This document shows positions 1 to 19,608 of a stretch of 64,000 nucleotides of DNA, one piece after another. Origin of the DNA: Parcubacteria group bacterium Gr01-1014_3 (GTDB taxonomy: Bacteria; Patescibacteriota; Minisyncoccia; UBA6257; WO2-44-18). The notes below the pieces were generated by a model. That model had not been told where the DNA came from, made no database searches, and saw nothing but the letters and a program-made list of their open reading frames with translations. Every line of letters starts with the position of its first letter. The stretch's first letter is position 1. Position numbers and translations under genes: made by a program. Location of the stretch: assembly GCA_007376445.1 (NCBI GenBank), contig VMGF01000001.1:316203-380202 (forward strand). The letters run 5' to 3'.

Positions 1-1458
1 ATTCCTATCATTGCCGATGAAAAGATCGATCTGGCTTTTGGCACGGGCGCGGTAAAGGTGACACCGGCGCACGATATGCTGGATTCCGAGATCGGTGAGC
101 GTCACCAACTGCCGAAATACGAAATTATCAATGAGCGAGGCAAGATGACTGACGTCGCTGGCGCGGAATTCACCGGTTTGAAAGTGGCCGAAGCTCGTGA
201 AAAGGTGGTGAAAAAACTAGAAGAGGCAGGACTCATCGAGAAAGTGGAAGATTATAAGCACAACGTGGCGATCTGCTATCGCTCCGCCACGGTACTGGAA
301 CCGCTTTTGAGCAATCAGTGGTTTTTGAAGATGGCCGAGCTGGCGAAAGAAACCCTCAAAACCATGAAGTCCGGAAAAACCAAGATTTTGCCGGAAAATT
401 TTGAAAGAACCGCCACGGCTTGGCTAGAGAATATCCGAGATTGGTGCATTTCTCGCCAGATCTGGTGGGGACATCAGCTACCTGTTTGGTTTTGCGAAAA
501 ACAAACAGGAATTTCCAATTCTCAAGTTCCAATTTCCAATGAAAATTTAAAATTGAAAATTGAAAATTCATCGGCGACCAAGGATTTCGTTGTTGCAATT
601 GAAAAACCTATCAAATGCCCATTTTGTAAAAATTGTATCATGGAGCAGTCGGCCGATGTACTAGATACCTGGTTTTCTTCGGCGCTTTGGCCGTTCGCGG
701 GTTTATCGGATAAGGATATAAAGGACTTTTATCCGTCTAGCGTATTGATCACCGCGCGCGACATCATCAATCTCTGGGTTTCCCGCATGATCTATTCCGG
801 TTTGGAGTTCCAAAAAGCCACACCGTTCCCGGAAGTTCTGATTCACGCCACGATTTTAACCAAAGATGGCCAAAGAATGTCCAAGAGCAAGGGGACGGGC
901 ATTGATCCGGTGGAACTGATCGATAAATATGGCGCGGACGCGACCCGCTTCGGTATTATTTGGCAGGCCATGGGCACTCAGGACATCCGCTGGGATGAGA
1001 CGGCGGTGCAGGGTGGCAAGAAATTCGCCAATAAACTTTGGAATATCGCCAAATTCATTCAAGGCAAATTAGCGAATAGCGAATTTAGTACGAATAAACG
1101 AATAAACGAATTTGGAATTCGTAAATTAGAGAAGGATTCGTTATTAGTTGATCAGGAAGATAAAGAAATCTTGGCAAAACTGGAAACTTTGAAATCGGAA
1201 GTAGAAAAAGACACCAAAAACTACGAACTTGGCCAGTCTCTGCACAAAATTTATGAATTCGTGTGGCATGAGGTGGCCGATAAATACCTTGAGGCCTCCA
1301 AGAAGCGCGAAGACGAAAATGTTAAAATGGTATTAGGGTATATTTTGCAAGAATCATTAAAGATCTTGCACCCATATATGCCCTTTATCACGGAAGAGAT
1401 CTACCAAAAGCTTTCCGATCGCCCCGGCGAGAGCTGGCTGATCGTTGAGCAGGTTTAG
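1..1458 (+). CDS. valS: valyl-tRNA synthetase, C-terminal part (5' end lies outside the window)
   Basis: The frame is open from nt 1 and begins IPIIADEKIDLAFGTGAVKVTPAHD, the class I ValRS motif. A KMSKS-type motif MSKSKGTGIDP and a coiled-coil C-terminus follow. The stop is TAG at 1456-1458. It carries an in-frame low-complexity insert ISNSQVPISNENLKLKIEN encoded by ttccaa/gaaaatt repeats. Confidence 0.9.
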   Translation: MPIIADEKIDLAFGTGAVKVTPAHDMLDSEIGERHQLPKYEIINERGKMTDVAGAEFTGLKVAEAREKVVKKLEEAGLIEKVEDYKHNVAICYRSATVLEPLLSNQWFLKMAELAKETLKTMKSGKTKILPENFERTATAWLENIRDWCISRQIWWGHQLPVWFCEKQTGISNSQVPISNENLKLKIENSSATKDFVVAIEKPIKCPFCKNCIMEQSADVLDTWFSSALWPFAGLSDKDIKDFYPSSVLITARDIINLWVSRMIYSGLEFQKATPFPEVLIHATILTKDGQRMSKSKGTGIDPVELIDKYGADATRFGIIWQAMGTQDIRWDETAVQGGKKFANKLWNIAKFIQGKLANSEFSTNKRINEFGIRKLEKDSLLVDQEDKEILAKLETLKSEVEKDTKNYELGQSLHKIYEFVWHEVADKYLEASKKREDENVKMVLGYILQESLKILHPYMPFITEEIYQKLSDRPGESWLIVEQV

Positions 1459-1465
1459 ACGAATG

Positions 1466-1523
1466 CCAGGTAGTGAAAACTCGAGCCTGCCTGGCAAAAA
1501 ACACTCGAGTTTCTACTACCTGG
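1466..1523. repeat. Family A inverted-repeat element, copy 1 (58 nt; CCAGGTAGTGAAAACTCGAG ... CTCGAGTTTCTACTACCTGG)
   Basis: It is a near-perfect palindrome filling the valS-to-next-gene spacer. It ends 1 nt before the ATG at 1525. The same termini recur at 40637 and 48564. Confidence 0.85.
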
Positions 1524-1524
1524 A

Positions 1525-2223
1525 ATGCTGATCTTCAACTATATTTTACTTACAATTCTCGGCCTCGCGCCAAGCCTTACCTGGCTGGTTTTTTATCTCC
1601 GCGAGGACGCGAATCACCCCGAACCGCGCAAGCTTCTTTTATATACTTTCCTGTCCGGCGCCGTCATCACGCTGATGGTGCTTCAGATCCAGCTGATCGT
1701 GAATCGCTGGCTGGTGAATTCTGGCGTGGATGGCTACGGATCGATCTCATTCTTAATGCTGGCGATCGTGGAGGAGTTCTTTAAATTTCTGGCTGTCTAT
1801 TTGGTGATCCGATATCGGCCGGAGTTTGATGAGCCGGTGGACGCGATGATTTATATGATAGTCGGAGCGCTTGGTTTTGCCGCGGTGGAGAACGTGGCCT
1901 CGGTTTTTCAGGCGACTGGTTCCTTTTTCCCGAAACCTGGTCCGTTGGAGACCACTATCTTGCGGTTCGTGGGCGCGACCCTGCTTCACACGCTTGCTTC
2001 CGGTTTCGTGGGTTATGAGTGGGGAAAGGCTAAGGCGGAGGGCCGGGACCCAAAGTTCAGCATTTTCATCGGCCTTGTCGGCGCCACTTTATTGCACGCA
2101 ATTTTCAATTATCTTATAATTAAATCAGGTCCGGTAACGCTGCCGATAGTGCTCCTGGTTCTGGTAGCGCCGTTTCTTCTTAGCGATTTTGAAAAACTGA
2201 AACATCTCCGGAATAAAATTTAA
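1525..2223 (+). CDS. PrsW-family intramembrane metalloprotease-like membrane protein
   Basis: It is a multi-TM protein with EEFFKFL, FAAVEN and HTLASGF motifs resembling the PrsW EExxK / FxxxEN / H signature. Confidence 0.55.
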   Translation: MLIFNYILLTILGLAPSLTWLVFYLREDANHPEPRKLLLYTFLSGAVITLMVLQIQLIVNRWLVNSGVDGYGSISFLMLAIVEEFFKFLAVYLVIRYRPEFDEPVDAMIYMIVGALGFAAVENVASVFQATGSFFPKPGPLETTILRFVGATLLHTLASGFVGYEWGKAKAEGRDPKFSIFIGLVGATLLHAIFNYLIIKSGPVTLPIVLLVLVAPFLLSDFEKLKHLRNKI

Positions 2224-2227
2224 AACA

Positions 2228-2698
2228 ATGAATGAAGAAATAAAAAAAGAAGACGTAGATATGGAGGTGGACGGCGATAACGCCGAAGTTGAGATACAAC
2301 TCGCCAAGTCAGGTTCTTCCGTTAAAGAGCGGAAAGCTAAATCCGTCTCCGACGACGAATACGATGACGACGGCCAGCTGACCATCGATGTCTATCAGAG
2401 CCCCGATGAGATCATCCTAGAATCTCCAATCGCTGGTGTGCGGCCGGAGGATGTGGATGTTTCTATCACCAACGAATCCGTGACTATTAAAGGAAAGCGC
2501 GAGCATGAGCGCCGTGTCCGCGACGATGATTATTTTTATCAGGAATGCTATTGGGGGCGCTTTTCTCGCTCTATAATCCTTCCGCAAGAAGTAGACGCGG
2601 AACGTTCCGAGGCTTTTATAAAAAATGGCGTGCTGACGGTCAGGATGCCGAAGCTGAACCGGCAGAGATCCAAGAAACTTCACGTGAAATCGGAGTAA
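2228..2698 (+). CDS. Hsp20 / alpha-crystallin small heat shock protein
   Basis: The alpha-crystallin domain has the pattern LTIDVYQSP...VTIKGKRE...GRFSRSIILP...NGVLTVRMPK. It has an acidic N-terminal extension. Confidence 0.8.
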   Translation: MNEEIKKEDVDMEVDGDNAEVEIQLAKSGSSVKERKAKSVSDDEYDDDGQLTIDVYQSPDEIILESPIAGVRPEDVDVSITNESVTIKGKREHERRVRDDDYFYQECYWGRFSRSIILPQEVDAERSEAFIKNGVLTVRMPKLNRQRSKKLHVKSE

Positions 2699-2807
2699 AT
2701 CCCACGCATAAGCTTTATGTATGGGACGAAAATCCCGCTGGACAAGCGGGGTTTTTCTATGTAAAATTTGGGCAGTTGTACTTTGAAACTCAAAGTGAGG
2801 AAAAAAT

Positions 2808-3761
2808 ATGGGCATCGCGCTTGTGCTGCACGGAGGCGGATTCGCCGGCGCTAAGCAGGTTGGTTTTGCTAAAGAACTTTGGGCTCGAGGCAAGATTCCA
2901 TCGGTTATTCAGGTGGTTTCAGTCGGCGCGCTTAACGGCGCCGGGTTAGTCGAGGTTGGTCCCGAAGAAGTTGAACGACGCTGGCGGTTGATTGAAAGAA
3001 ATGGTCCCAGCTCGATTTTTAATTGGAAGGGCATGCCTTTCCATCTCATATCAATGTCTAACGCGCTCCTGAGCGATTACGGACTGAACGAGTTGGTGAA
3101 GCAACTCGATATGAGCAAGATCGTTTCCTCGCCGATCCGGCTGGAGGTGGCAGTTAGGAACGAAACAACTAATCAGCTGATGTTTTTTTCTAATCACGAC
3201 CTGGATATCAAAGAGAATCCAGAAATTCTTCGCAAGGCGATCAAAGCCTCAGCTAGCCTGCCGGGTATTTTCCCACCGGTTGAGATAAATGGAGAATATT
3301 ATTCTGATGCCTACTGCTTCGATCTGGAGCGCTTAGCGAAATTCGAAACAATTTTATTATTGATGAATGAAGAGCCTAAGGCGAACAAAGACCTTCATTC
3401 CCTGCCCTCATATCAGAGACTTTTTGTGGGATTCAACGAGATCCTGGACGATCTGGTGGAACTGAAAATCGATTCTTTCGTAGATAAGCATCCTGAGTTC
3501 AAGAGAATTAAGATCAGCTCCAATCTTGGAATCTTCGATCGGATTAAGAAAAAGCTGGCTGACGCGGCTTCTAAGATATTGGAAGCGCTGGACCTTAAAG
3601 ATTCACGCCAGCTTATCGTGATCAGTCCGGAATACAGTCTTCCTACTTTGAGACTCGATAGCTTTCACCTGCCTACCAAGACCCAGGAAGGCGATATTGG
3701 TAAGGCGATAAGACTTAGTCAGGAACAGGCCAGGCAGCTTCTGGATCAGTTAGAAATTTAA
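2808..3761 (+). CDS. patatin-like phospholipase family protein (motifs degenerate)
   Basis: It has an N-terminal LHGGGFAGAKQVGF glycine-rich loop and a VSVGALNGA nucleophile-elbow-like segment. The canonical GxSxG is not perfect. A hairpin plus T-run terminator lies at about 3765-3795. Confidence 0.4.
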   Translation: MGIALVLHGGGFAGAKQVGFAKELWARGKIPSVIQVVSVGALNGAGLVEVGPEEVERRWRLIERNGPSSIFNWKGMPFHLISMSNALLSDYGLNELVKQLDMSKIVSSPIRLEVAVRNETTNQLMFFSNHDLDIKENPEILRKAIKASASLPGIFPPVEINGEYYSDAYCFDLERLAKFETILLLMNEEPKANKDLHSLPSYQRLFVGFNEILDDLVELKIDSFVDKHPEFKRIKISSNLGIFDRIKKKLADAASKILEALDLKDSRQLIVISPEYSLPTLRLDSFHLPTKTQEGDIGKAIRLSQEQARQLLDQLEI

Positions 3762-3866
3762 GTCCCCTTTCGAAAGAAGGGGACTTTTGAATTTCACGGC
3801 CCATTTTTTATTGCGCCGGATTTAACTATCCTAGTGGCTAATCGCTAGTCGCTATATACTATTTAC

Positions 3867-4385
3867 ATGGTGGAATTCGCGACCGAGGGAATTGTTTTAG
3901 ATAAGGAAGATGTTGGCGATTACGACGCCAAAGTTTTTTTATACACCCGGGATTTCGGCAAAATTCAGGGTAAGGTAAAAAGTTTAAGAAAAATCACCTC
4001 CAAGCTAGCCGGCCACCTCGAGCCTTTGAATATGGTGTCTGTCCGGCTGATCAGTAGAAATATTAATTTTTCCAATTTTCAAATTGTGGATGCCCTCAAG
4101 ACCGGGCAACTGCCTTCCACAACCGGCCGGATGACCGCCTTAAGATTGATCAAGGAAATCGCGCCGGAGGGGAATATGGATCTCGCGCTTTGGGATCTTC
4201 TAGTTGGTGGAGAACTTTCCGCCGCCAAAGTTCTTTCTTTGTTGGGTTTTGACCCGACCTTTGCCAGCTGCCAGCAGTGTGGTGATAAAAAACAGCTCAA
4301 TTTTTTAATTAAAAACCTGAACTATTTCTGCGCCCCATGCCTTTCCGTGGCATCTATCTCTGAAAAGGTTTTTGTTCTAAAATAA
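3867..4385 (+). CDS. recO: DNA repair protein RecO (short form)
   Basis: It has an N-terminal OB-fold region GIVLDKEDVGDYDAKVFLYTRDFGKIQGKVKSLRK and a C-terminal CQQCG...CAPC zinc finger. Confidence 0.6.
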   Translation: MVEFATEGIVLDKEDVGDYDAKVFLYTRDFGKIQGKVKSLRKITSKLAGHLEPLNMVSVRLISRNINFSNFQIVDALKTGQLPSTTGRMTALRLIKEIAPEGNMDLALWDLLVGGELSAAKVLSLLGFDPTFASCQQCGDKKQLNFLIKNLNYFCAPCLSVASISEKVFVLK

Positions 4386-4390
4386 GGGAA

Positions 4391-6109
4391 ATGACTCGAA
4401 CGACCAAGATTATTATTATTTTCTCGGTAGTCGCCGCTTTGGCGCTTTCGACTATTCTATATTTTGCTTATCAGGCCAGGATCGGGAGTGGTTTTGAGAT
4501 CGAGTTAAAGATGCCCGATCAAGTTTTCGTGGGCGTGCCGTTCGATCTGGATGTGAATCTGATCAATAATTCCGGAAATCCGCTTCAAAATGTCCAATTA
4601 TTCGTGCAGTTGCCGGAGGGCGTGGCCTTCGTGGGTTCACCGGCGACTAAGAGCGTGGATGTGCGCGATATGAAAAACATCGGCGACGGCGGACTTCAGC
4701 AGCAGGTCTATAAGCTGATCGTCTCCAGTGGCGAGAATAGCATCAAGCAGATATTCGCGCGCGCCATTTATTCTTCCGGTTCATTAAAGTCTCGTTTTGA
4801 AAGACGGCAAGAGCAGGAGTTGGCGGTGGGCGGATACGGACTTCAGCTGGATATTTCCACTCCGCAAAAAACTTTCAGCGGCGAAGATTTTGATATCGAG
4901 GTTTTTTATAAAAATGTTTCCGATCAGGATTTCTCCGACCTCAAACTTAAGCTCGACTACCCGCCAACTTTCAATTTCAAGAAATCTACTTTAAAGCCGG
5001 ACACGGGAAATAATATCTGGGTGCTTGGCGGACTTCGCAAAGGTTCGGAAATGAAGTTTAAAGTTACCGGCAATCTTGTCGGTCCCGATGGTTCCTTCTT
5101 CGATCTCAAGGCCGCGGTGGAGGCGAATCTTTCCGGACATAACTATCCGGTCAATGTAAAAACCGCGACTCTTTCAATCGCGCCATCACCGCTTTCTATC
5201 CGCATCGAGCTTAATGACAATCCGGATTATGTAGCCAAGGCCGGTGACAGCCTGAACTACACCCTTACATATGTAAACAATACCGATACCGGCTTGCGGG
5301 ATGTGGTCATCCGCGCCCAGTTGGTTGGCGCGATGTTTGATGTCGGCACTCTTTCGACTAATGGAAGTCTGCGCTCTTCCGACAACACGATCATCTGGAA
5401 CGCTTCCAATGTGCCGCAGCTGGCCAGTTTGCCGCCGGGCGCGAATGGCAATGTGGACTTTACCCTCCGGGCCAAGAATGATTTTCCAATCAAGCGCTTG
5501 AGTGATAAGAATTTTACTTTGAAAGTTGCCTCGGTGATCGAATCTCCAACCGTTCCGCAATTCGTGGAAGCCACGAAGACGATGGGCGCCTCTACTCTGG
5601 AGACGAAAGTTGGCGGGCAGATAAAGCTGGAGGCTAAGGTATTTTTCCGGGACGCCGAGTCGGGGATCATCAATAAAGGCCCCCTGCCGCTGAAAGTCGG
5701 TAAGCCGACTCAGTTCACCGTGCATTGGATCCTGACCAACTATGGCACGGATGTAAAAACTATCCAGGTGCGCGCGTTTTTGGGCGGTAATGTGAAGTAC
5801 GCCGGAGTTTCCAAGAGCACGACCGGGCAGTCGCCAGTTTATAACGACAACGCCCAGGAGATGTATTGGGATGTGAACCGCATCGCGGCTGGAACTGGCG
5901 TGGTGAATAAACCAGCCGAGGCGATCTTCCAGATCGAGGCGACACCCTCGGTGACGAACTTAAATCAGTTCATGGATTTGATCCAGAAGAGCACGCTGAC
6001 CGGTATCGATGAATTTACTAACCTTGAAATCAAGGCCGATGATCAATCTGTTTCTTCGAGTTTGCCGGATGATCCGACGGCGAGCGGGCAAGGCATAGTG
6101 GTACAATAA
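4391..6109 (+). CDS. hypothetical membrane-anchored extracellular protein (N-terminal TM, beta-rich repeats)
   Basis: The N-terminal TM helix is IIIIFSVVAALALSTILYF. It is followed by a long T/S/N/V-rich region with repeated blocks of the type LxYTLTYxNNTD. Confidence 0.4.
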   Translation: MTRTTKIIIIFSVVAALALSTILYFAYQARIGSGFEIELKMPDQVFVGVPFDLDVNLINNSGNPLQNVQLFVQLPEGVAFVGSPATKSVDVRDMKNIGDGGLQQQVYKLIVSSGENSIKQIFARAIYSSGSLKSRFERRQEQELAVGGYGLQLDISTPQKTFSGEDFDIEVFYKNVSDQDFSDLKLKLDYPPTFNFKKSTLKPDTGNNIWVLGGLRKGSEMKFKVTGNLVGPDGSFFDLKAAVEANLSGHNYPVNVKTATLSIAPSPLSIRIELNDNPDYVAKAGDSLNYTLTYVNNTDTGLRDVVIRAQLVGAMFDVGTLSTNGSLRSSDNTIIWNASNVPQLASLPPGANGNVDFTLRAKNDFPIKRLSDKNFTLKVASVIESPTVPQFVEATKTMGASTLETKVGGQIKLEAKVFFRDAESGIINKGPLPLKVGKPTQFTVHWILTNYGTDVKTIQVRAFLGGNVKYAGVSKSTTGQSPVYNDNAQEMYWDVNRIAAGTGVVNKPAEAIFQIEATPSVTNLNQFMDLIQKSTLTGIDEFTNLEIKADDQSVSSSLPDDPTASGQGIVVQ

Positions 6110-6114
6110 TTCCT

Positions 6115-7446
6115 ATGGATTTAATGGATAAAATACTTAGTCTTTCCAAGCGGCGGGGTTTTATTTTCCCTGGTTCAGAAATTTATGGCGGATTAGCCAA
6201 CTCTTGGGATTACGGCCCGCTTGGCGCGGAGTTAAAAAAGAATATCAAAGACGAATGGTGGAAGCGGTTTGTGCGCCAGCGGCCTGATGTGGTGGGCATC
6301 GATGCCGCTTTGATCATGAATCCGAAAGTCTGGGAAGCCTCCGGTCATGTGGCCGGTTTTTCCGATCCGTTGGTGGAGTGCAAAAAATGCCATGAGCGAT
6401 TCCGGGCGGATCATGTTGATGGTACGAAATGTCCTAGTTGCGGCGGTGAGCTGATGGCTCCGAAGCAGTTCAATCTAATGTTCAAGACCAATATTGGCCC
6501 TACGGAAGAACAGGGAAGCGAGGTTTATTTACGGCCGGAGACGGCGCAGGCGATGTTTGTGGATTTTAAAAATGTATTGGATACGACCCGCAAGCGGCTG
6601 CCGTTCGGCATCGCGCAGATGGGTAAAGCTTTTAGAAACGAAATTACGCCGGGTAACTTTATTTTCCGAACCCGCGAGTTCGAGCAGATGGAGATCGAAT
6701 ATTTCGTCAAAGAATCCGAGTGGGAAAAGCATTTTGAGGCGTGGCTGGAGGAGATGCGCTCCTGGCTCAAGCATCTGGGCGTGAAAAAATGGCACGAGCA
6801 GGAAATCCCGGATGGAGAACGGGCCCACTATTCCAAGCGCACTGTTGATATTGAGTATGATTATCCTTTTGGTCGGAAAGAGCTCTACGGCTTGGCTTAT
6901 CGGGGAAATTTTGACCTGACTCAACATGAGAAATTCAGTGGCCAGGATTTGAAGTACACCGATCCGGAGAATCCGAAAGAAAAATTCTTGCCGCATGTCA
7001 TTGAACCGACCTGGGGTGTGGACCGTTCGTTATTGGTAGCGATGCTGGAAGCGTACGCTGAGGAGGAAGTTAAAAGTTCAAAGTTAAAAGTTGAAAGTGA
7101 AAACGGAGAGGAAGAAGAGGACACCCGCGTGGTGATGCGTTTTCCGAAGTGGCTGGCGCCAGTCAAGGTGGCGATTTTGCCGCTTTCTAAAAAAGAAGAA
7201 CTCGCCAAAATAGCCAAGCCGCTACACGCGGAGCTGGCAAAAGAGTTTGCCTGTGAGTACGACGAGACGCAAAGTATCGGCAAGCGCTATCGCCGCCAGG
7301 ACGAGATCGGCACGCCATATTGCGTGACCGTGGATTTTGAAACCGCCAACGATCAGTCTGTCACCGTCCGCGATCGGGACACGATGAAGCAGGAGAGGAT
7401 TGCTATTAGTTCGCTCAAGCAGTATTTGATTGACAAATTAGCTTAA
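6115..7446 (+). CDS. glyQS: glycyl-tRNA synthetase (dimeric class II GlyQS type)
   Basis: The N-terminus RRGFIFPGSEIYGGLANSWDYGPLG is the GlyRS signature. Class II motifs and the anticodon-binding C-terminus are present. It carries an in-frame insert EEEVKSSKLKVESENGEEEED encoded by aagttaaaagtt repeats. Confidence 0.9.
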   Translation: MDLMDKILSLSKRRGFIFPGSEIYGGLANSWDYGPLGAELKKNIKDEWWKRFVRQRPDVVGIDAALIMNPKVWEASGHVAGFSDPLVECKKCHERFRADHVDGTKCPSCGGELMAPKQFNLMFKTNIGPTEEQGSEVYLRPETAQAMFVDFKNVLDTTRKRLPFGIAQMGKAFRNEITPGNFIFRTREFEQMEIEYFVKESEWEKHFEAWLEEMRSWLKHLGVKKWHEQEIPDGERAHYSKRTVDIEYDYPFGRKELYGLAYRGNFDLTQHEKFSGQDLKYTDPENPKEKFLPHVIEPTWGVDRSLLVAMLEAYAEEEVKSSKLKVESENGEEEEDTRVVMRFPKWLAPVKVAILPLSKKEELAKIAKPLHAELAKEFACEYDETQSIGKRYRRQDEIGTPYCVTVDFETANDQSVTVRDRDTMKQERIAISSLKQYLIDKLA

Positions 7447-7555
7447 AAGTCATACTATATATCCGCTCTTTGAAAGCTTGGTTTTCTGACAGTACTGCGC
7501 TGTCTGACAAGCTTTATTTTTTTCATCCGCGCATACCGGATGAAAGGAGGTTTAT

Positions 7556-10353: not shown

Positions 10354-11373
10354 ATGGAACAGAAAGGCATAATGATCAGCTGGGCGAGCCTGTGGAAGAT
10401 AGTCTTAATGCTTCTGCTGGTTTGGGTTCTTTACGTGGCGCGTGAGATAGTGGTCGCGCTCTTTTTGGCTATCGTAGTTTCTGCCGCTTTTGACCCGGCC
10501 GTTAGTTGGATGGAGAAACGAAAAATTCCTAGAATTCTTGGCACGCTTGGCATGTATATCTTGATGATCTTCTTGATCGGCATGCTGGTTTACGCGGTTG
10601 TTCCGATCGCGCTTTCAGAATTAAGTATTTTCTTGGGTAACCTTGGTAAGATCTCCGGCAACCTTTCCGACCTCGTGGACGCCTCCAGTCTGATCCAGGC
10701 GGTGAATCAGAGTTTAACCAGACTGACCAACCTGCTTTTAAGTGGCAGCTCGTCCTTGCTGGATATTGGCTCACAATTTTTGGGCGGTTTAACAATGACG
10801 ATTTCGGTATTCGTTTTGTCCTTTTATCTTACAGTCGGCAAAGATGGTGTAGAGAAATTCTTGGTGAACGTTCTCCCGCCGGCCTATGAAAGCGTAGCGA
10901 CGGACCTTTATTATCGGATCCGAAAGAAGATCGGACGATGGCTGTCTGGCCAGGTTATCTTAAGTTTTGCGATTGGCCTGATGGTTTTCTTGGGGCTGTG
11001 GATATTAGGGGTTAAATACAGCCTGCTTCTTGGTATCTTGGCCGGTATCTTTGAGCTAATTCCTTATGTGGGCCCGATCTTTAGTGGAAGCTTGGCCGTT
11101 TTAGTTGGCGCGACCCATTCTTTGTCATTAGGCCTTTATACGGCTATTTTGTTCATCATTATTCAGCAGCTCGAGAATCATGTCCTGGTGCCGGCCGTCA
11201 CTAAATTCACGACCGACATTTCGCCGGTAGTCATTTTGGTAGCTCTACTTGTTGGCGCCAAGGTGTTTGGCTTTGTGGGATTGATCTTAGCAGTGCCGAT
11301 CACGGTGCTTTTACAGGAATTTTTGGAGAACTGGTCTCAAACAAAAGCTCGAAGGAGAGGACTGGGTATCTAG
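10354..11373 (+). CDS. AI-2E family transporter (PerM/TqsA-like permease)
   Basis: It has 7-8 TM helices and the conserved ELIPYVGPI motif. Confidence 0.7.
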   Translation: MEQKGIMISWASLWKIVLMLLLVWVLYVAREIVVALFLAIVVSAAFDPAVSWMEKRKIPRILGTLGMYILMIFLIGMLVYAVVPIALSELSIFLGNLGKISGNLSDLVDASSLIQAVNQSLTRLTNLLLSGSSSLLDIGSQFLGGLTMTISVFVLSFYLTVGKDGVEKFLVNVLPPAYESVATDLYYRIRKKIGRWLSGQVILSFAIGLMVFLGLWILGVKYSLLLGILAGIFELIPYVGPIFSGSLAVLVGATHSLSLGLYTAILFIIIQQLENHVLVPAVTKFTTDISPVVILVALLVGAKVFGFVGLILAVPITVLLQEFLENWSQTKARRRGLGI

Positions 11374-11497
11374 GTAAATTTTCAATGCTCAATTTTAAAT
11401 TTTCATTGAATTTTCAATGAACTAATTTTTAAACCCTGAAAATTATCAAATTGATAATTGATTGGAAATTGTTGCTTGAAAATTGTAAATTGATTCT

Positions 11498-13006
11498 ATG
11501 GAGAAATTCTACATAACCACATCCATCCCATATGTAAACGCGACGCCTCATTTGGGCAACGTGCTTGATTCCGTATACGCGGATGTCTTGGCGCGTTATC
11601 ATCGACAGCGAGGCGCGGATGTACGATTTTTGACCGGGTCTGATGAGCATGGTGTGAAAATTGCGCGAAGCGCCGCCGCCCGGTTCGCGGGCGAGCCTCG
11701 CCCATCGGATGGGCGGGAAGCGGTTCCGACAGAAATAATTCAAAGATTCGTAGATGAAACTTCCGCCAAGTTTCGCGCGCTCAAAGAGACCCTGAATCTT
11801 TCCTGGGATGATTTTATTCGCACTTCTGATCAGCAGCGGCATTGGCCTGGCGCGCAAAAACTCTGGAATGCCTTAGCGGCGCAGGGCGATCTATATAAAA
11901 AATCCTACAAGGGACTGTATTGCGTAGGTCATGAAGCTTTTGTGACTGACAAAGATTTGGATAACGGAGTTTGCAAAGATCACCAGAAAAAACCGGAGAT
12001 AATCGCGGAAGAAAACTGGTTTTTCAAACTTTCCAAATATTCTAAAGAGATAGAATCAAGAATCAAGAATCAAGAATTAAGAATAGTGCCGGAGGGAAAA
12101 CGGCATGAGATCCTTTCGCTCCTCAAAGAAGGATTGGAGGACGTGAGTTTTTCTAGGCCCAGCAAGGATTTGTCTTGGGGCGTGCCCGTGCCGGGTGACC
12201 CGACGCAGACGATGTATGTGTGGGCGGACGCTCTGGCCAACTACATTTCCGCTCTTGGTTATGGTTCGACAAGCTCACCACAAGTGGACGACTCTGAAAA
12301 AGACTTTAAAAAATATTGGCCAGCGGATGTACAAGTGATCGGCAAGGACAATCTCCGATTTCACGCTGCGATTTGGCCGGGCATGCTTTTGTCGGCAGGA
12401 TTACCACTGCCCAAAACCGTCTTCGTACACGGATTTTTAACCGTGGATGGCCAGAAAATCTCTAAAACCGTGGGGAATGTCATTGATCCGGTGGAGCTAG
12501 TGAAAAAATATGGTACCGACCCGGTCCGATATTATTTATTACGCGAAGTTTCGCCATTTGAAGATGGCGATTTTAGTTATGAGAAGTTTGAAGCGGCGTA
12601 TAACGGCGATTTGGCTAATGGTATTGGCAATTTTTCCGCGCGAGTCCTGGCCTTGGCGGAGAAAGCGGGGAATCTTGCGGCCGGTAAGGCCTCGCCAGAA
12701 ATAGAAGCCGCCATTCAAAAAACTCGCGAAGAATTAGAAGAAAAAATCGGTGAATATAAATTCCATGAAGCGGCGAGCGTGATTTGGGGGCTTATTTCGT
12801 TCGGTGATTCGTATGTAAACGAAAAAAAGCCGTGGCAAAATCCTGATCCGGGAGTTTTACTGGACCTGGTAACTATTTTAGAAAATGTCGCCGAATTATT
12901 GTCGCCGTTCATTCCGGGAACCGCTGAGAAAATTTCTAAATGCATAGTTCGCGAAGGTAAAATTCTGAAAATTAAAAAAGGCGAGGTTTTGTTTCCTCGC
13001 CTATAG
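11498..13006 (+). CDS. metG: methionyl-tRNA synthetase
   Basis: It has FYITTSIPYVNATPHLGN (HIGH-type) and KISKTVGNVIDP (KMSKS-type) motifs. It carries an in-frame insert IESRIKNQELRI encoded by an aatcaag tandem repeat. Confidence 0.9.
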   Translation: MEKFYITTSIPYVNATPHLGNVLDSVYADVLARYHRQRGADVRFLTGSDEHGVKIARSAAARFAGEPRPSDGREAVPTEIIQRFVDETSAKFRALKETLNLSWDDFIRTSDQQRHWPGAQKLWNALAAQGDLYKKSYKGLYCVGHEAFVTDKDLDNGVCKDHQKKPEIIAEENWFFKLSKYSKEIESRIKNQELRIVPEGKRHEILSLLKEGLEDVSFSRPSKDLSWGVPVPGDPTQTMYVWADALANYISALGYGSTSSPQVDDSEKDFKKYWPADVQVIGKDNLRFHAAIWPGMLLSAGLPLPKTVFVHGFLTVDGQKISKTVGNVIDPVELVKKYGTDPVRYYLLREVSPFEDGDFSYEKFEAAYNGDLANGIGNFSARVLALAEKAGNLAAGKASPEIEAAIQKTREELEEKIGEYKFHEAASVIWGLISFGDSYVNEKKPWQNPDPGVLLDLVTILENVAELLSPFIPGTAEKISKCIVREGKILKIKKGEVLFPRL

Positions 13007-13009
13007 CAG

Positions 13010-13624: not shown

Positions 13625-13694
13625 CAGTCGCCCCCTTTCATCAGCGCCAAGGTTTGTGAAAAGACTTATGCTATAGTAGCCTAAAATTAATATT

Positions 13695-14528: not shown

Positions 14529-14563
14529 TATAGGATTAACGCAGTTCTTAAGGAGATGTTGCT

Positions 14564-14953
14564 ATGTGGGAAATCGAGAATAGACTACTCGCGAAGCTGA
14601 TTGAACTTACGAAAACCGATAAGATGCGGTGGGATGCCAATCTGGATATTCATTCAGCCATGCATGAAAGCAACAAGCTTTTTGTTTGGTGGCCTCAAGA
14701 TGGCAAGCCAGGCTTAACTCTTAACGACACTCGGGTCGAAGATTATGGCATTGGAATCGAAGTGTTGATCACCGAAATTCACAAACAGTACGAACGACAG
14801 GATCGGAATGGTTACGGTCCGACCGCGAAGAAGGAACGAGAAGAGGCCGATAGCAAGGGCCAGGAAGCCGCGCGGAAAGAAGCATCGGATTTCGCCAATG
14901 CGGCGAGCAAGTTCCTGGAAGACGAAAATAAGAAAAACAAAAAGAGACGCTGA
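14564..14953 (+). CDS. hypothetical small protein, paralog of the 15102 gene
   Basis: The block AKLIELTKTDKMRWDANLD parallels ALAKLTSQDKLVWEHHDL in the next gene. It has a lysine-rich tail. Confidence 0.45.
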   Translation: MWEIENRLLAKLIELTKTDKMRWDANLDIHSAMHESNKLFVWWPQDGKPGLTLNDTRVEDYGIGIEVLITEIHKQYERQDRNGYGPTAKKEREEADSKGQEAARKEASDFANAASKFLEDENKKNKKRR

Positions 14954-14974
14954 TAAAGCACTATTCCACGGCGG

Positions 14975-15006
14975 TCGCCGTGGTTTTTATTACTTCGGGT
15001 TGCTTT
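14975..15006. terminator. perfect hairpin ttgcttttatgacc-gta-tggtcataaaagcaa
   Basis: It is a 14-bp perfect inverted repeat between the two paralogous small genes. An extended -10 promoter, atatggtataat (TGnTATAAT), follows at about 15045-15056. Confidence 0.5.
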
Positions 15007-15101
15007 TATGACCGTATGGTCATAAAAGCAACCCATTGTAAGAATATAAAAATATGGTATAATTTCGGCAGTTCTAAGACAATCAACAAAAGAGGTGGCT
15101 C

Positions 15102-15533
15102 TTGAAAAACAAGGACTTCAGCGCCGGTTTCGTGAAAGCCCTCGCCAAGCTTACGAGTCAGGATAAGCTGGTTTGGGAGCATCACGATTTAAGTGGCCAT
15201 GGGTATCGGTTTGATTCGGACATCGCTTACTGCGAAACCTGGATCTTGTGTCTCGACACAGTAAAAAATTCTTTCGTGTTGCAGGTTGCTGAATCATTTA
15301 ACTGTTTCACGGAGTTTTCTGGTGCGGATTATGGGCTTGGCGGGCTTGATAGGGCAATTTCTAGCCAGCGCTATCGTCAGACAAGCGGAATGTGCAGGAA
15401 GGCCTTAGTCCCTGAGGACAAAATTGCCAAATTTATCAATGATAAGGTGCTCAAGGCTAAGAAAGACGATGAAGATCGGGAGACGGTTCTCGAAAAGTGC
15501 TCCCGGGCGTTTAAAGGAGAGAAATATGAATAG
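15102..15533 (+). CDS. hypothetical small protein, paralog of the 14564 gene
   Basis: It shares the N-terminal motif with the 14564 gene. A terminator gacctcgcttaaaggcgaggtttttt lies at about 15538-15565. Confidence 0.45.
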   Translation: MKNKDFSAGFVKALAKLTSQDKLVWEHHDLSGHGYRFDSDIAYCETWILCLDTVKNSFVLQVAESFNCFTEFSGADYGLGGLDRAISSQRYRQTSGMCRKALVPEDKIAKFINDKVLKAKKDDEDRETVLEKCSRAFKGEKYE

Positions 15534-15637
15534 ACTTGACCTCGCTTAAAGGCGAGGTTTTTTAATTGCCGATTTTTTAAAATCGTGCTATAAAGTAGCC
15601 AGCAATTTGAGAGGTTCATATACCAGGAGGTGGCCAA

Positions 15638-17233
15638 ATGATTGACCACGAAAGCACGCTGAATGATTTGTTTAATCGTGCCTCTAGGCTTTATCCGGAT
15701 CATCCGGCAATCTCATTTTTCGACTTCGAGCTGTCTTATAGCCAACTTGATATGCGCGCTGGTCAGTTTGCCAATTTTCTGAAAAAGAAAGGCATTGGAT
15801 ACGGTGACCGAGTTGGAATGATTTTGCCTAACTGTCCACAGCTGGTTATCGCTTATCGCGGCGCCCTAAGGGCCGGAGCAATCGTGGTGATGATGAATCC
15901 GCTCGCGAGTTCGGATGAGATTCTGGAGATGGTCCAGCAAACGAAGCCCTCGATCGTCATTTCTCTCAAAGATTTCCGGGAGCACAATTATGAGATCGCG
16001 AATTTCGCGACTTATGATGGAATGCTTATGGTGATCAGTCTGGCGGACTACCTGCCATTGATTACGGGTATGCTCTACGGAGCGAAGAATTTAGTGGGCA
16101 AGACATGGCACTGGGCGAGAAATCCTAATGACATTGGGTTTTTTGTAGGCCCAAGGTGGCATGAAACAGAATCTTGCGCGCCCACGAAAACAAACGGCGA
16201 GGTTAAACCATCTGATACCGCGGTACTCCAGTTTACCGGCGGTACGACCGGTGGGCTGAAGGCAGCTGAGCTTACCCATTACAATCTGGTGAATAACGCT
16301 AATCAAGCGGCAGCGATTTTGGGTGATCTGGTTTCACCGGAATCGGTTTTTCTGGGTGTATTACCAATTTTTCATGTTTATGGACTTTCGGTCTGTTTGA
16401 ATATCGCTTTTTCGCATGGCAGTAAGGTTGTCCTGTTGCCGCGTTTCAACGCGAAGCAGGTGATCAAGACAATCATTAGCGAGAAAGTTAATATTCTCCC
16501 GGCGATTCCAAAGATTTTTTCCGCTCTACTAAAGACGGGTGTCTCTTCTGACGCCTATCGTACTCTGCGCGCTTGTTTTTCTGGCGCCGGAGCGTTGGAC
16601 GGCAAGCTGAAGCAGGAGTTTCAGTCCTGGACTGGTGCCAAGATCTTTGAGGGCTACGGACTTTCCGAGACTTCACCGATTGCCATGGTTAATACACCGG
16701 AAGCGAATCGGGATGGAAGTTTGGGGAGGCCCGTGCCGGATACTGAAGCCAAGATCGTGGATGACGAACTGTTCATCCGCGGCCCTCAGGTGATGAGAGG
16801 ATATTGGGGTAAGCGCCAAGCGACCCACGAAGTTCTGGACCGCGACGGTTGGCTTGCTACCGGCGATATGGCTCGAATGGATGACGACGGGTTCTATTGG
16901 ATGACTGATCGGAAAAAGGACATGATCAAGATCAGGGGTGAAAATGTTTATCCGAGCGAGATCGAGAAAGTGATCAAGCGGCATGTTAATGTCGCTGAGG
17001 TGGCGGTGGTCGGCATTCCTGACCGTGACTTAGGCGAAAAGATCGTGGCCTGCGTGGTCCTGAAGGATGGAAAAACAAAGGCCGAGGAGATTCTGGCTTT
17101 CTGCCGGAAGGAAGGCCTCGCTTCGATAAAGATTCCGCAAGAGGTTCGGTTCGTAAAAGAAATACCGAAGAATCCGATTCTCGGAAAGGTCCTGAAGAAG
17201 GAGCTTCGGGCGATGATTCAAAAGCCGCAGTAA
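15638..17233 (+). CDS. AMP-dependent synthetase/ligase (acyl-CoA synthetase family)
   Basis: It has the AMP-binding motif TGGTTGGLKAAELTHYN, a GYGLSETS block, and a C-terminal domain with IKIRGENVYPSEIE. The SD is ccaggaggtgg. A terminator aaaagccgcagtaatgcggcttttttt lies at about 17221-17248. Confidence 0.85.
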   Translation: MIDHESTLNDLFNRASRLYPDHPAISFFDFELSYSQLDMRAGQFANFLKKKGIGYGDRVGMILPNCPQLVIAYRGALRAGAIVVMMNPLASSDEILEMVQQTKPSIVISLKDFREHNYEIANFATYDGMLMVISLADYLPLITGMLYGAKNLVGKTWHWARNPNDIGFFVGPRWHETESCAPTKTNGEVKPSDTAVLQFTGGTTGGLKAAELTHYNLVNNANQAAAILGDLVSPESVFLGVLPIFHVYGLSVCLNIAFSHGSKVVLLPRFNAKQVIKTIISEKVNILPAIPKIFSALLKTGVSSDAYRTLRACFSGAGALDGKLKQEFQSWTGAKIFEGYGLSETSPIAMVNTPEANRDGSLGRPVPDTEAKIVDDELFIRGPQVMRGYWGKRQATHEVLDRDGWLATGDMARMDDDGFYWMTDRKKDMIKIRGENVYPSEIEKVIKRHVNVAEVAVVGIPDRDLGEKIVACVVLKDGKTKAEEILAFCRKEGLASIKIPQEVRFVKEIPKNPILGKVLKKELRAMIQKPQ

Positions 17234-17280
17234 TGCGGCTTTTTTTATTGCTCTAATTTTAGTAAACTGGAGACACGTAG

Positions 17281-19608
17281 ATGGCATATAATTTTAAGAA
17301 AATTGAGGCGGCTTGGCAGAAAGTTTGGGCAAAAAATAAGCATAAAATTTGGGCCGCGGAGGACCAATCCGTCAAACCGAAGCAATATGTTCTCGATATG
17401 TTCCCGTATCCATCCGGCGAGGGCCTTCACGTCGGTCACGTCGAGGGTTATACCGCTTCCGACGTCTATTCTCGCTTTATGCGGATGAATGGCTACAATG
17501 TCGTCCACCCGATGGGCTGGGATGCCTTTGGACTCCCGGCGGAGAATTACGCTATCAAAACCAAACAGCACCCGGAGAAGGTGGTTAAAAAGAATGTAAA
17601 AAGATTCCAGGAGCAATTACAAAGCCTGGGATTCAGTTATGACTGGCAGAGAGAGATCAACACCACCGATCCGGAATATTATAAATGGACACAGTGGATT
17701 TTCGTGCAACTTTTTAAAAAAGGATTGGCATATGAAGCGGAGCTTCCGGTGAACTGGTGCCCGAAAGATAAAACGGTATTGGCAAACGAAGAGGTGGTTG
17801 ATGGTTGCTGTGAGCGGTGCGGGACGGCCGTGGAACGGCGCAATTTAAAGCAGTGGATTTTAAAGATCACTGCTTACGCCGATCGGTTATTAAATGACTT
17901 AGATGGCTTGGATTGGCCGGAGCGCGTTAAAGAAATGCAAAGAAACTGGATCGGCCGATCCGAGGGAGCCATCATTAAGTTTCAAGTTGTAAGTTCTAAG
18001 TTTCAAATTGAAGTTTTCACTACCCGGCCGGACACGCTCGCCGGTGTCACATATATGGTTCTTGCTCCGGAGCATCCACTGATCGGAAAGCTGGTGGTCA
18101 ACGCGGAAAACGTCAAAGAGATCGAGTCGTATATTCAAAAATCCAAGAACAAGAGCGATCGGGAGCGTCAGGAAAATAAAGAAAAAACTGGCGTGGCCTT
18201 GAAGGGGGTCATGGCCGTAAATCCGATCAGCCAAGAAAAAATTCCGGTCTGGATCGCTGACTATGTGTTGGCCCAATATGGGACGGGCGCGATCATGGCC
18301 GTGCCACAACACGACGAGCGTGACCGGGAATTCGCCGAAGCCTTCCATCTTCCGATTATCGATAAGCCCTTGATAGATAAAGAAACGGCTATCCAAAAGG
18401 CAGGGGGTGTAAAAAAAGTTAATTTTAAATTGCGCGACTGGATTTTTTCCCGTCAGAGATACTGGGGCGAGCCGATCCCGATCATTAAATGCCCGACCTG
18501 TGGCAATCAGCCGGTAGCCGAGGAAGATCTTCCGGTAAAATTACCGAATGTTAAGAATTATGAACCGACCGGTAATGCCGAGTCTCCACTCGCCGCTATA
18601 ACGAAGTGGGTCAATGTGAAATGTCCAAAGTGCGGAGGCGACGCCAAGAGAGAAACGAACACGATGCCGCAGTGGGCCGGTTCGTGCTGGTACTACCTCG
18701 CATATCTTATGCGAGGAATTTCCAATTTCCAATTTCCAATTTCCAAATACAAAGAGGTTTTTGATCATTGGCTTCCGGTGGATTTATATTTGGGCGGCGT
18801 GGAGCACGCCGTGCTTCATCTTTTATACGCGAGATTTTGGCACAAGTTTTTATTTGATATCGGCGTAGTTTCCACCAGTGAACCATTCAAAAAACTTGTG
18901 AATCAGGGACTGATTCTTGGCCCGGACGGACAAAAGATGTCCAAGTCCAAGGGTAACGTAGTCAGTCCAGATGAAATGGTGGAAAAATTCGGAGCTGATT
19001 CACTTCGCCTATACGAAATGTTCATGGGCCCGCTTGAAGACGCGAAACCATGGGATCCGACCGGAATCGTGGGCGTTCACCGGTTCCTCGGCAGGATATA
19101 TAACCTTGCGTTAAAAATCCAAAATCCAAAATCCAAAATCCAAAATTCAAAACTTGATCAACTTTTACACAAAACCATAAAAAAAGTTACCGAGGATATT
19201 CAGGGATTTCATTTCAACACCGCCATCAGCGCTCTTATGATCTTGCTGAACGAGATAGAAAAACAGCCGGAGGCCGCGGCCGCGCATGTACCCACGATCG
19301 CTAAGCTGCTTTTCCCGTTAGCGCCACATTTGGCTCAAGAAGTTTGGAAAATGCTGGGCAACAAAGGCTTGCTGGATCACGAAGAGTGGCCGAAGTATGA
19401 AAAGGCGCTGATTGAAGACGCGGAATTTGAACTGGTCATACAGATCAACGGCAAAGTCCGCGATCACGTGATGGTTAAAAAGGGTATTGGTCAGTCGGAG
19501 GCTGAAAAGCTGACACTGAACCGGGAAATAGTGAAGAAGTGGCTGGAAGGAAAGCCGCCCAAGAAGATTATTTTCGTCAAAGACAGGTTGCTCAACGTAA
19601 TTGTTTAA
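17281..19608 (+). CDS. leuS: leucyl-tRNA synthetase
   Basis: It has PYPSGEGLHVGHVEGY (HIGH) and KMSKSKGN motifs plus a CP1 editing domain. It carries three in-frame repeat-encoded inserts: QVVSSKFQIEV, SNFQFPISKYK and KIQNPKSKIQNSK. Confidence 0.95.
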   Translation: MAYNFKKIEAAWQKVWAKNKHKIWAAEDQSVKPKQYVLDMFPYPSGEGLHVGHVEGYTASDVYSRFMRMNGYNVVHPMGWDAFGLPAENYAIKTKQHPEKVVKKNVKRFQEQLQSLGFSYDWQREINTTDPEYYKWTQWIFVQLFKKGLAYEAELPVNWCPKDKTVLANEEVVDGCCERCGTAVERRNLKQWILKITAYADRLLNDLDGLDWPERVKEMQRNWIGRSEGAIIKFQVVSSKFQIEVFTTRPDTLAGVTYMVLAPEHPLIGKLVVNAENVKEIESYIQKSKNKSDRERQENKEKTGVALKGVMAVNPISQEKIPVWIADYVLAQYGTGAIMAVPQHDERDREFAEAFHLPIIDKPLIDKETAIQKAGGVKKVNFKLRDWIFSRQRYWGEPIPIIKCPTCGNQPVAEEDLPVKLPNVKNYEPTGNAESPLAAITKWVNVKCPKCGGDAKRETNTMPQWAGSCWYYLAYLMRGISNFQFPISKYKEVFDHWLPVDLYLGGVEHAVLHLLYARFWHKFLFDIGVVSTSEPFKKLVNQGLILGPDGQKMSKSKGNVVSPDEMVEKFGADSLRLYEMFMGPLEDAKPWDPTGIVGVHRFLGRIYNLALKIQNPKSKIQNSKLDQLLHKTIKKVTEDIQGFHFNTAISALMILLNEIEKQPEAAAAHVPTIAKLLFPLAPHLAQEVWKMLGNKGLLDHEEWPKYEKALIEDAEFELVIQINGKVRDHVMVKKGIGQSEAEKLTLNREIVKKWLEGKPPKKIIFVKDRLLNVIV

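Follow-up and report, generated by a model that had tools for sequence, protein, structure and literature searches.

Tandem seven-base repeats of a dispersed family lie in frame within aminoacyl-tRNA synthetase genes and other housekeeping genes of Paceibacteria

Why do four aminoacyl-tRNA synthetase genes (valS, glyS, metG and leuS) of Parcubacteria group bacterium Gr01-1014_3 contain short AT-rich repeats in frame, when related repeats also occupy the spacers between its genes? The question is raised by a stretch of 64,000 nt of contig VMGF01000001.1 (assembly GCA_007376445.1, positions 316,203 to 380,202 of the forward strand), hereafter the window, for which the original prediction was a proliferating simple-repeat element that tolerates, or exploits, in-frame insertion into the surface loops of essential enzymes. 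The repeated segments are probably copies of a clade-specific, AT-rich, dispersed family of heptanucleotide modules of the general form (AATNNNN)4AA, comparable to the STRRs of cyanobacteria (short repetitive sequences whose copies stand in tandem) and translated as passengers of the proteins that host them. What is observed is a clade-wide family of heptanucleotide arrays at the DNA level, of discrete size and common to spacers and genes, in either orientation and any codon phase; the arrays are denser per kb in spacers, and within genes they are always in frame and free of stop codons.

The window is gene-dense, with ~48% G+C and ~91% coding sequence according to a simple mask of open reading frames (ORFs). 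Pfam identifies the host ORFs as a partial ValRS (1-1458), an alpha2-type GlyRS (6115-7446), MetRS (11498-13006) and LeuRS (17281-19608), and no further synthetase was identified among the ORFs scanned in the window. The LeuRS matches that of Parcubacteria group bacterium Gr01-1014_3, on a 400-kb contig, at 100% identity. The six repeat strings first quoted from these genes were all found exactly, displaced by 1-8 nt from where they had been placed, the host ORFs are intact at all six, and the repeats keep the reading frame as claimed. The heptanucleotide period, the discrete size of ~30 nt and a seventh repeat segment (valS 1070-1111) had not been part of that description. The coding arrays, as delimited by Tandem Repeats Finder, are as follows.

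510-572, + strand: valS composite, in which an (AATTTCC)-type array (510-540) meets one of (TGAAAAT/GAAAATT) type (540-568), encoding ISNSQVPISNENLKLKIENS
1070-1111, + strand: second valS segment, (TAGCGAA)2 and (ACGAATAA)2.8, encoding NSEFSTNKRINEFG
7067-7103, + strand: GlyRS array, (AAGTTAA/AAAAGTT) x5.3, encoding VKSSKLKVESEN
12048-12086, + strand: MetRS array, (AGAATCA) x4.7, encoding IESRIKNQELRI
17976-18015, + strand: LeuRS site 1, (TAAGTTC) units in a degenerate array that also has period 21 x2, encoding KFQVVSSKFQIEV
18716-18748, + strand: LeuRS site 2, (AATTTCC)4AA, a perfect module of 30 nt, encoding ISNFQFPISK
19113-19152, + strand: LeuRS site 3, (AAAATCC)4 plus AAAATTC AAAAC, encoding LKIQNPKSKIQNSK

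All six sites originally noticed are tandem arrays of a heptanucleotide, ~4-5 units and ~30 nt long, to which Tandem Repeats Finder assigned a period of 7, 14 or 21 and units that differ within and between genes (AATTTCC and TGAAAAT in valS, AAGTTAA in glyS, AGAATCA in metG, and TAAGTTC, AATTTCC and AAAATCC in leuS); period 7 was also returned for the spacers at 11375-11493, 45950-46019, 47541-47633 and 50085-50173. A scan of the window for identity at a lag of 7 detected eight regions compared with 0.0 in 30 composition-preserving shuffles, no such regions were detected in the window at periods 1-5, 8-11 or 13, and period 7 is the sole over-represented short period in the window, which holds at least 14 heptamer loci with at least eight unit sequences. 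Because 7 and 3 are coprime, three units amount to 21 nt or seven codons, and all three frames of an array yield a single cyclic heptapeptide, which is NFQFPIS for (AATTTCC)3 and GNWKLEI for its complement, with no stop in any of the six frames. A pure (GAAAATT)n array would contain TGA, but the copy in valS has TTA at that place and terminates before the next TGA. The density of arrays in the window is 0.5 per kb in spacers versus 0.12 per kb in coding sequence, and 0.9 per kb inside the four synthetase genes; under stringent definition, six of seven coding arrays fall within 6.6 kb of synthetase coding sequence and one within the other ~51 kb (binomial p ~1e-5, as estimated here).

The arrays outside the synthetase genes, none of them assigned to a strand, are as follows.

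11375-11493: spacer upstream of metG, inverted arrays (CAATTTY)n then (RAAATTG)n that form a long imperfect hairpin (Tandem Repeats Finder)
30512-30548: degenerate intergenic array, TAAGTTT/TAAGGTA/TAAGTTA
45950-46019: intergenic heptamer arrays of A and T only, AATTATA / AATTTAA
47541-47634: infB-xerC spacer, arrays of AAATTTT and of ATTGAAA/ATTTAAA, containing the 22-mer shared with valS
50054-50174: spacer of convergent genes, inverted heptamer arrays (CAATTTY)n then (RAAATTG)n that form a long hairpin, containing the 14-mer of LeuRS site 2
62785-62823: degenerate (GAATTAA/AGAATNA) array at the 5' end or in the leader of an ORF resembling type IV secretion system pilin, minus strand
63244-63273: second pilin-like ORF, minus strand, with a degenerate array of AGTTATA/AGTTAAA close to its 5' end

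The claim that genes and spacers share sequence rested on two strings, both of which recur. The 14-mer CAATTTCCAAATAC is exact at 18737 in leuS and at 50064, and the 22-mer at 47613 matches valS 541-562 at 21 of 22 positions; neither was matched in 100 shuffles. By the arithmetic of this analysis some exact 14-mer pair is expected per 64 kb, so the 14-mer alone is weak evidence and the 22-mer is not. One dispersed repeat family is common to genes and spacers, as had been proposed. By inspection, the intergenic arrays are longer and more degenerate than those in genes, and more variable in phase and length. Two of the spacers with inverted arrays are predicted to fold as RNA at -24.8 kcal/mol each (11372-11497, z -2.99; 50054-50174, z -4.06, with 0 of 200 shuffles equally stable). 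Rfam matches in the window are tRNAs only; the intergenic arrays coincide with neither a T-box nor any other known RNA. The valS composite, made of two roughly inverted arrays, has the left-arm/right-arm layout of the spacer inverted arrays, and its hairpin is weak (z -0.57). A role of the coding arrays as RNA hairpins was considered and rejected, as single coding arrays lack structure (z from +0.7 to +1.8). The DNA of the valS composite (AATTTCC AATGAAAATT-TAAAATTGAAAATTGAAAATTC) recurs in frame in lepA of L119, a Nomurabacteria-like contig, within a LepA loop that has 8 aa in many close homologues and elsewhere holds either the 26-aa composite or unrelated GC-rich palindromic inserts.

The four synthetase genes lie within 20 kb on one strand of the window (1-21500). 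The same gene order is found in two relatives, L081 (Harrisonbacteria) and L082 (patatin-like gene, glyS, M16 peptidase, AI-2E transporter, metG, tatD, leuS and glmS, with ~70% protein identity), and these two as well as a third relative, L083, have period-7 arrays and essentially no arrays of any other period.

Comparison with solved structures and orthologues separates sites at which an array adds length from sites at which it does not. In the ValRS zinc knuckle, the valS composite separates the two Cys pairs and adds about 17 to 20 aa relative to Thermus thermophilus ValRS, or 24 aa relative to the minimal orthologue loop of 31 aa; the second valS segment adds about 11-13 aa relative to T. 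thermophilus ValRS, and orthologues have heptamer-type peptides at this site. Two ValRS orthologues of 78% identity (P0349 and P0353) have zinc-knuckle arrays that differ by exactly LKLKIKN, which is three units or 7 aa. The GlyRS array lies in the linker that joins the catalytic and anticodon-binding domains and adds 9 aa relative to PDB 8u2q; L082 has a homologous (GAAAAGT)4 array at the same site of its linker, and L081 has no array there. Lineage-variable insertion into loops or linkers is supported for the ValRS and GlyRS copies. The same pair of ValRS orthologues differs at aa 213-224, where the editing domain starts before VATTRPET, in that only one has the array PISNFKFQISN; structurally, this place corresponds to LeuRS site 1 (before VFTTRPDT), so that two paralogous enzymes are prone to arrays at one and the same hairpin. 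At 1240-1340, L082 also has, inserted before the CPSCGG zinc motif of GlyRS, a tandem repeat of 21/42 nt with TCGAAAT every 21 nt (SKSDVKM/SKSPVEM x4.5).

The MetRS array aligns without gaps to PDB 4dlp and to MetRS of L081 and L082, and is thus an equal-length replacement with a net change of 0; at the homologous codons L081 MetRS has ATCAAGAA. Elsewhere in metG (11675-11720) is a GC-rich segment of 15 aa, ARFAGEPRPSDGREAVP, which is absent from L081, L082 and solved MetRS; its GGGCGAG...CGCCC hairpin has a fold that is not significant (z -1.5), and the segment may be an in-frame mini-insert of another kind.

In an AlphaFold2 model of LeuRS (mean predicted local distance difference test score, pLDDT, 74), site 1 is the beta-hairpin that enters the editing domain directly before VFTTRPDT, with strands at 226-236 and 242-247 (pLDDT ~87), and there is no gap relative to T. 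thermophilus LeuRS. Native codons AAA-TTT-CC (K-F-P) stand at its left edge, and the peptide encoded by the array keeps the conserved pattern F-P...I-x-V-F. The same 30-33 nt are occupied by perfect AATTTCC arrays in L094 and L099, by an AAATTCG array in L115 and by degenerate arrays in the window and in L083; boundaries that stay stable while the unit is replaced imply concerted evolution or re-writing. Site 2 is a loop before WLPVD, between helices 464-479 and 486-494 (pLDDT 55-63), and is 4 aa longer than in T. thermophilus; the arrays of L081, (TTTCCAA)3.7, and L083, (AATTCAA)4, start at most one base from that of the window. Between the window and L081, whose LeuRS proteins are 71% identical, the codon is shared at 48% of identical residues overall but at eight of eight in the site 2 array (p = 0.003), so synonymous positions at this one array site are conserved beyond the background of the gene. 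Among 120 homologues, site 2 has either a canonical form, RY[LI]DP...KEKYWMP, or an array form, [AG]Y...array...F(D/K)xWLP, with array peptides such as NFQFPIS, NSKFKIQNSK, NLKLKIKN, NSKFEIRNSK and, in P0040, QKSKIKNQKSKIKNQKS from an array of 7.3 units; much the same holds for sites 1 and 3. Site 3 is a loop where the anticodon-binding domain starts, and in the model it lies between helices 593-613 and 623-641; it is shorter than the Thermus loop, and its length varies among orthologues, many of which have other heptamer peptides. At one protein site, and between unchanged boundaries, the unit differs from lineage to lineage.

The description of these repeats as insertions accordingly holds for ValRS, GlyRS and LeuRS site 2 and fails for MetRS, for LeuRS site 1 and for LeuRS site 3, and their assignment to surface loops holds for the loops and linkers of ValRS and GlyRS and for LeuRS sites 2 and 3 but not for LeuRS site 1, which is a confidently modelled beta-hairpin. 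Nor are they private insertions of one lineage: Paceibacteria orthologues have equivalent heptamer-encoded peptides at the same positions, which implies that the sites are old and recurrent.

Within a cluster of LeuRS sequences of more than 90% identity, P0152 and its sibling P0099 are near-identical over the first ~650 aa and have 77 differences, nearly all in the C-terminal third; P0152 has canonical loops at sites 2 and 3, and its siblings have array-type loops. This mosaic may be either a recombinant allele or a chimeric assembly. Many LeuRS of Parcubacteria (~930-1100 aa; L094, L115, L137; P0048, P0049, P0065 and others) have a NUDIX domain inserted after the editing domain.

The phenomenon is not confined to synthetases, in which it had first been noticed. 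An exact scan of public metagenomes for (AATTTCC)3 matched at least 120 contigs; among 80 of these that were examined, 49 have the array in a stretch of 250 aa or more without a stop, and 36 of 40 tested host ORFs have a clear Pfam identity, representing ~28 kinds of housekeeping genes. The hosts include LeuRS (four), Val/Ile-type synthetases (two), TsaD (two), UvrC (two), LepA, Fmt, KsgA, MiaA, a MiaB-like enzyme, GatA, GuaA, RecG, UvrD, AddB, SecD, SecF, PrmC, prepilin peptidase, a P-type ATPase, glycosyltransferases, methylases and others. Synthetases are six of the 36, a few-fold above their share of a small proteome as estimated here, and most of the excess is LeuRS. Thirty-eight arrays in metagenome genes comprise 28 sense and 10 antisense copies in codon phases 10:12:16, with a perfect length that is a multiple of 3 in 22. 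The net effect on host length is exactly +11 aa in TsaD, +26 aa in LepA and +1 aa in Fmt, where the copy overwrites a conserved hairpin in place.

Period 7 also dominates elsewhere in the clade. In 498 kb of the metagenome contigs recovered, with the seed excluded, there are 83 arrays of period 7 (~1 per 6 kb) compared to 11 of period 6 and 14 of period 8, and the arrays of related contigs have ~30 unit sequences. By comparison, 1.29 Mb around LeuRS genes in ordinary bacteria outside the candidate phyla radiation (CPR), mostly distant Firmicutes-type loci among the matches listed by a scan with the LeuRS alignment, contain 10 arrays of period 7 and similar counts at periods 6, 9 and 12, and there are none of period 7 in 138 kb of Falkowbacteria, Kaiserbacteria and Saccharibacteria. 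The names of homologues indicate Harrisonbacteria, Giovannonibacteria, Yanofskybacteria, Azambacteria and Nomurabacteria, all Paceibacteria. The contigs that bear arrays include some with 55-68% G+C and 11 that are viral, among them an IMG/VR phage contig (L210; 68% G+C; portal, capsid and methylase genes) with six arrays of period 7 and none of periods 5, 6, 8 or 9. The units of this phage contig at 3819-6136 include CAATTTC, CCTACCG, AATGNCC and TTGGTCA, the last of which we take to be one of the classic cyanobacterial STRR units, and one array is flanked by the inverted 7-mers GTGGTCA/TGACCAC. Another contig (L135, 836-991; 60% G+C) has adjoining perfect (TCGTCAT)n arrays of 84 and 73 nt, far outside the class of 30-34 nt.

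The commonest module, (AATTTCC)4AA(TTT), has a sharp left end, a fuzzy right end and a modal length of 30 nt. Fifty-four of 85 AATTTCC arrays begin exactly with AATTTCC, and the perfect length is 30 nt in 18 and 31-33 nt in 27 more. In 38 full copies the upstream 21 nt match the unit at the level of chance (1.6-2.0 of 7), and beyond the fourth unit AA follows in 38 of 38; the next base is T in 22 and the one after it is T in 21, and no signal persists beyond that. Arrays of ~20 other units, which were not selected by the AATTTCC search, have a bimodal distribution of lengths, with 29 at 21-27 nt, none at 28-29 nt, 21 at 30-34 nt and almost none longer; among the 22 long ones, 17 begin with AAT on one strand.

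A model that accounts for these data is one in which a DNA-level process specific to period 7 would both make and homogenize the repeats, through concerted evolution or re-writing within fixed boundaries, and the repeats would spread as small modules that include inverted composites of ~65-80 nt. Selection would act only as a filter, passing copies whose length preserves the frame, whose unit is free of stops and whose position is tolerated by the protein, such as Zn-knuckle loops, linker loops and hairpins in which the encoded peptide preserves key residues; copy number in genes would change only in steps of three units. The peptides (NFQFPIS, KIQNSKF and so on) would be passengers, not adaptations, and large class I synthetases would be over-represented because they offer several permissive sites of ancient occupation. 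A model in which a local seed heptamer would be reiterated rightwards is suggestively compatible with LeuRS site 1 and MetRS. The proliferating element tolerated in frame that was originally proposed is a fair description of such modules, found as they are in many unrelated essential genes elsewhere.

Several points weigh against this account. Neither a generating enzyme nor a template for the arrays was identified, and the flanks of the 38 full AATTTCC copies show no target-site duplications or terminal inverted repeats on single arrays. The equal-length replacements in MetRS and at LeuRS site 1, and the copy in Fmt with its +1 aa, are awkward for a simple model of inserting a module. Length polymorphism, which had been suggested as a check, was not seen at the arrays of 14 independently assembled, near-identical LeuRS sequences; of the clusters of 90% identity in which it was sought, cluster 1 has none at the arrays and cluster 4 has the whole-loop swap of P0152. 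The fixed phase of AATTTCC was determined from sequences recovered with that very pattern, a bias limited to arrays shorter than 27 nt. Permissive loops explain the enrichment in synthetases of the window only partly, and translation of the array segments is deduced from sequence.

The foremost alternative, unlikely though it is, is that the arrays are ordinary microsatellites that arose in place by replication slippage from chance proto-repeats in AT-rich, weakly constrained sequence, retained by drift where the genome is small and repair weak, with the survival of states that preserve the frame. The 3-unit difference in ValRS and the 7.3-unit array in LeuRS fit slippage filtered by frame; ATCAAGAA in MetRS of L081 is a possible local seed, as are the native codons at the left edge of LeuRS site 1; and the longer, degenerate, phase-variable intergenic arrays are also as slippage would leave them. 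However, slippage combined with coding selection should favour periods 3, 6 and 9, which are rare, and lengths should be geometric rather than bimodal with a mode at 30-34 nt. Slippage does not predict that one AT-rich unit with a fixed left phase and a random upstream flank should recur in dozens of unrelated genes, some of them on contigs of 55-68% G+C; to reach 4.5 copies from a seed of 1.5 copies requires lethal frameshift intermediates in essential genes; and near-identical strains are without polymorphism.

A quite unlikely, more specific possibility is that modules of ~30 nt, (AATNNNN)4AA, are written into DNA by a dedicated process of Paceibacteria and their phages. One candidate writer would be a nick- or gap-primed reiterative (templated) synthesis with a register of 7 nt and a ruler of ~30 nt, which either inserts its product or overwrites an equal length. 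Such a process would explain the sharp left end and the fuzzy right end of the module, the replacements of equal length seen in MetRS, LeuRS and Fmt, and the swapping of units within fixed boundaries.

The arrays might instead be functional nucleic-acid signals, which is distinctly improbable: DNA or RNA sites for an oligomeric protein with a 7-nt register (compare the spaced triplets of HutP and TRAP), or uptake or recombination signals under molecular drive, so that copies in genes would be selected or driven, not merely tolerated. The discrete size of four full units plus AA, the phased AAT in 17 of 22 long arrays of other units, the conservation of synonymous sites at LeuRS site 2 and the presence of arrays in GC-rich contigs and phages are consistent with signals; so are the inverted pairs between convergent genes, which resemble terminator-like pairs of uptake sequences, the DprA encoded in the window, and the swap of alleles in the LeuRS cluster of >90% identity, which suggests recombination but could be a chimeric assembly. 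Against signals are the many units with no single recognition sequence, the occurrence of both orientations in genes, a density of just ~1 per 6 kb, the lack of structure of coding arrays as RNA, and the failure to identify a candidate binding protein.

Adaptation at the level of the protein, in which the low-complexity peptides are selected extensions of loops (for solubility, binding of partners or moonlighting), is very improbable. Recurrence of the sites across lineages and retention of the F-P...I-x-V-F pattern at LeuRS site 1 would suit it, but the same DNA is found in spacers, its period of 7 nt is not a multiple of codons, and in genes of at least 36 unrelated protein families its two orientations encode peptides that have no relation to each other (NFQFPIS in one, GNWKLEI in the other); moreover, lineages have entirely different peptides at one and the same site yet keep the periodicity of the DNA. 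Regulation of the synthetases by attenuation dependent on the cognate amino acid was rejected because, as read from the translations, the encoded peptides have no consistent excess or lack of the cognate residue, and compositional drift like that of Plasmodium was rejected because the genome has 48% G+C and the same AT-rich arrays are found in contigs of 55-68% G+C. An artefact of assembly or sequencing is scarcely credible, for although all data are from metagenome-assembled genomes and the P0152 mosaic could be chimeric, long essential ORFs are intact across the arrays, the same sites are occupied in independent assemblies from NCBI, JGI, ENA and Logan, and all 14 independently assembled near-identical LeuRS have the arrays.

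If the segments are passengers of a dispersed heptanucleotide family, that family has relatives. Heptamer repeats have been known in cyanobacteria since 1990, and Vioque is said to have reported in 1997 that STRRs lie inside a functional RNase P RNA gene. The present family is a little-described cousin of these 7-base repeats and of the in-frame 'selfish' repeats of Rickettsia, and combines features of both; no description of it was found in the literature on heptanucleotide or simple repeats in Parcubacteria, Patescibacteria or CPR bacteria. Heptameric simple sequence repeats (SSRs) are over-represented in many bacteria, with a preference for about four units in Xanthomonas and Nostoc (PMC4692102), and the cyanobacterial STRRs, with a unit of 7 bp, form hairpins, and no function is known for them (PMC2670836). 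Like the STRRs of cyanobacteria and the GGGNATC repeats of Xanthomonas and Nostoc, the present arrays consist of dispersed tandem 7-nt units of which a genome has several, period 7 is over-represented, they are denser per kb in spacers than in coding sequence overall, they form hairpins in spacers (PMC2670836) and they prefer about four units. Unlike those repeats, they belong to Patescibacteria/Paceibacteria, have AT-rich units with a phased AAT, are often in frame inside essential protein genes and, for the commonest unit, have a fixed phase and a mode of 30 nt. AT-rich units cannot form G-quadruplexes, and so the preference for four units here is not explicable by such structures; that AT-rich arrays have the same preference together with a fixed phase speaks for a preference that stems from the way in which the repeats are made. 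If a dedicated writing process is real, the four-unit preference of heptamers in other bacteria, hitherto attributed to G-quadruplexes, would be a mechanistic signature instead, and the origin of this preference is testable in these small genomes.

Rickettsia palindromic elements (RPEs) are in-frame repeats in housekeeping genes, with conserved peptides that are compatible with protein fold and function (PMC10969869). As with RPEs, one repeat family is in frame in many unrelated housekeeping genes, and its composite inverted form (valS, lepA and spacers) is palindromic. RPEs differ in being complex palindromes of ~100-150 bp in about ten families, whereas the present modules are tandem heptamers of 30-33 nt when single and ~65-80 nt when composite; single arrays are not palindromic, and some copies replace sequence while length is unchanged. 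In contrast to repeats resembling miniature inverted-repeat transposable elements, AATTTCC copies have neither terminal inverted repeats nor target-site duplications. Phase-variable contingency loci likewise have a non-triplet SSR unit inside an ORF, such that slippage by one unit would shift the frame, but the present hosts are essential housekeeping enzymes and not genes of surface, restriction-modification or virulence type, alleles with a shifted frame were not seen, and the sole length difference seen in the present family is a frame-preserving step of three units. DNA uptake sequences (the uptake signal sequences and DNA uptake sequences known as USS and DUS) have one fixed motif at ~1 per kb, in genes at tolerant positions and in spacers as inverted, terminator-like pairs. 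The present family differs from them in having many units at ~1 per 6 kb, and may resemble them in its inverted spacer pairs and its tolerant positions in genes.

Were the passenger interpretation correct, core translation enzymes of an ultra-small, streamlined bacterium would carry repeat modules that belong to the level of DNA and are simply translated, which bears on how much junk a minimal genome tolerates. In annotation and alignment of CPR proteins, 'insertions' such as NFQFPIS, KIQNSKF and GNWKLEI would be footprints of repeats and not homology, and for phylogenetics with marker genes it matters that array-bearing and array-free alleles are intermingled among lineages, with possible recombination between them.

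Other repeats in the same genomes differ from the heptamers. In-frame, GC-rich loop peptides (NPLLDKEGAGGG, PPQKGGE and P(T/A)GRQ) are found repeatedly in proteins of Paceibacteria, in some cases nested within a heptamer array; their carriers are the LepA loop of P0171, P0177, P0187 and others, ValRS (P0285, P0290 and P0391) and LeuRS (P0015). When back-translated they resemble small palindromes such as CTGCCTGCCGGCAGGCAG, which points to a possible second family of in-frame hairpins. Within the window, a 1492-aa surface-type protein of the He_PIG/GEVED kind has GC-rich coding repeats at 56495-56550 (period 21, x2.7) and 58076-58140 (periods 6/12/18; GCGCCAACTCCA x5), which are ordinary codon-multiple repeats unrelated to the heptamers. 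On the minus strand at 23956-24615, a LAGLIDADG-like ORF adjoins tRNA-Leu(GAG), and in both L081 and L082 a homologous ORF stands beside the gene for L19. The ORF may be related to homing endonucleases, in domesticated or free-standing form.

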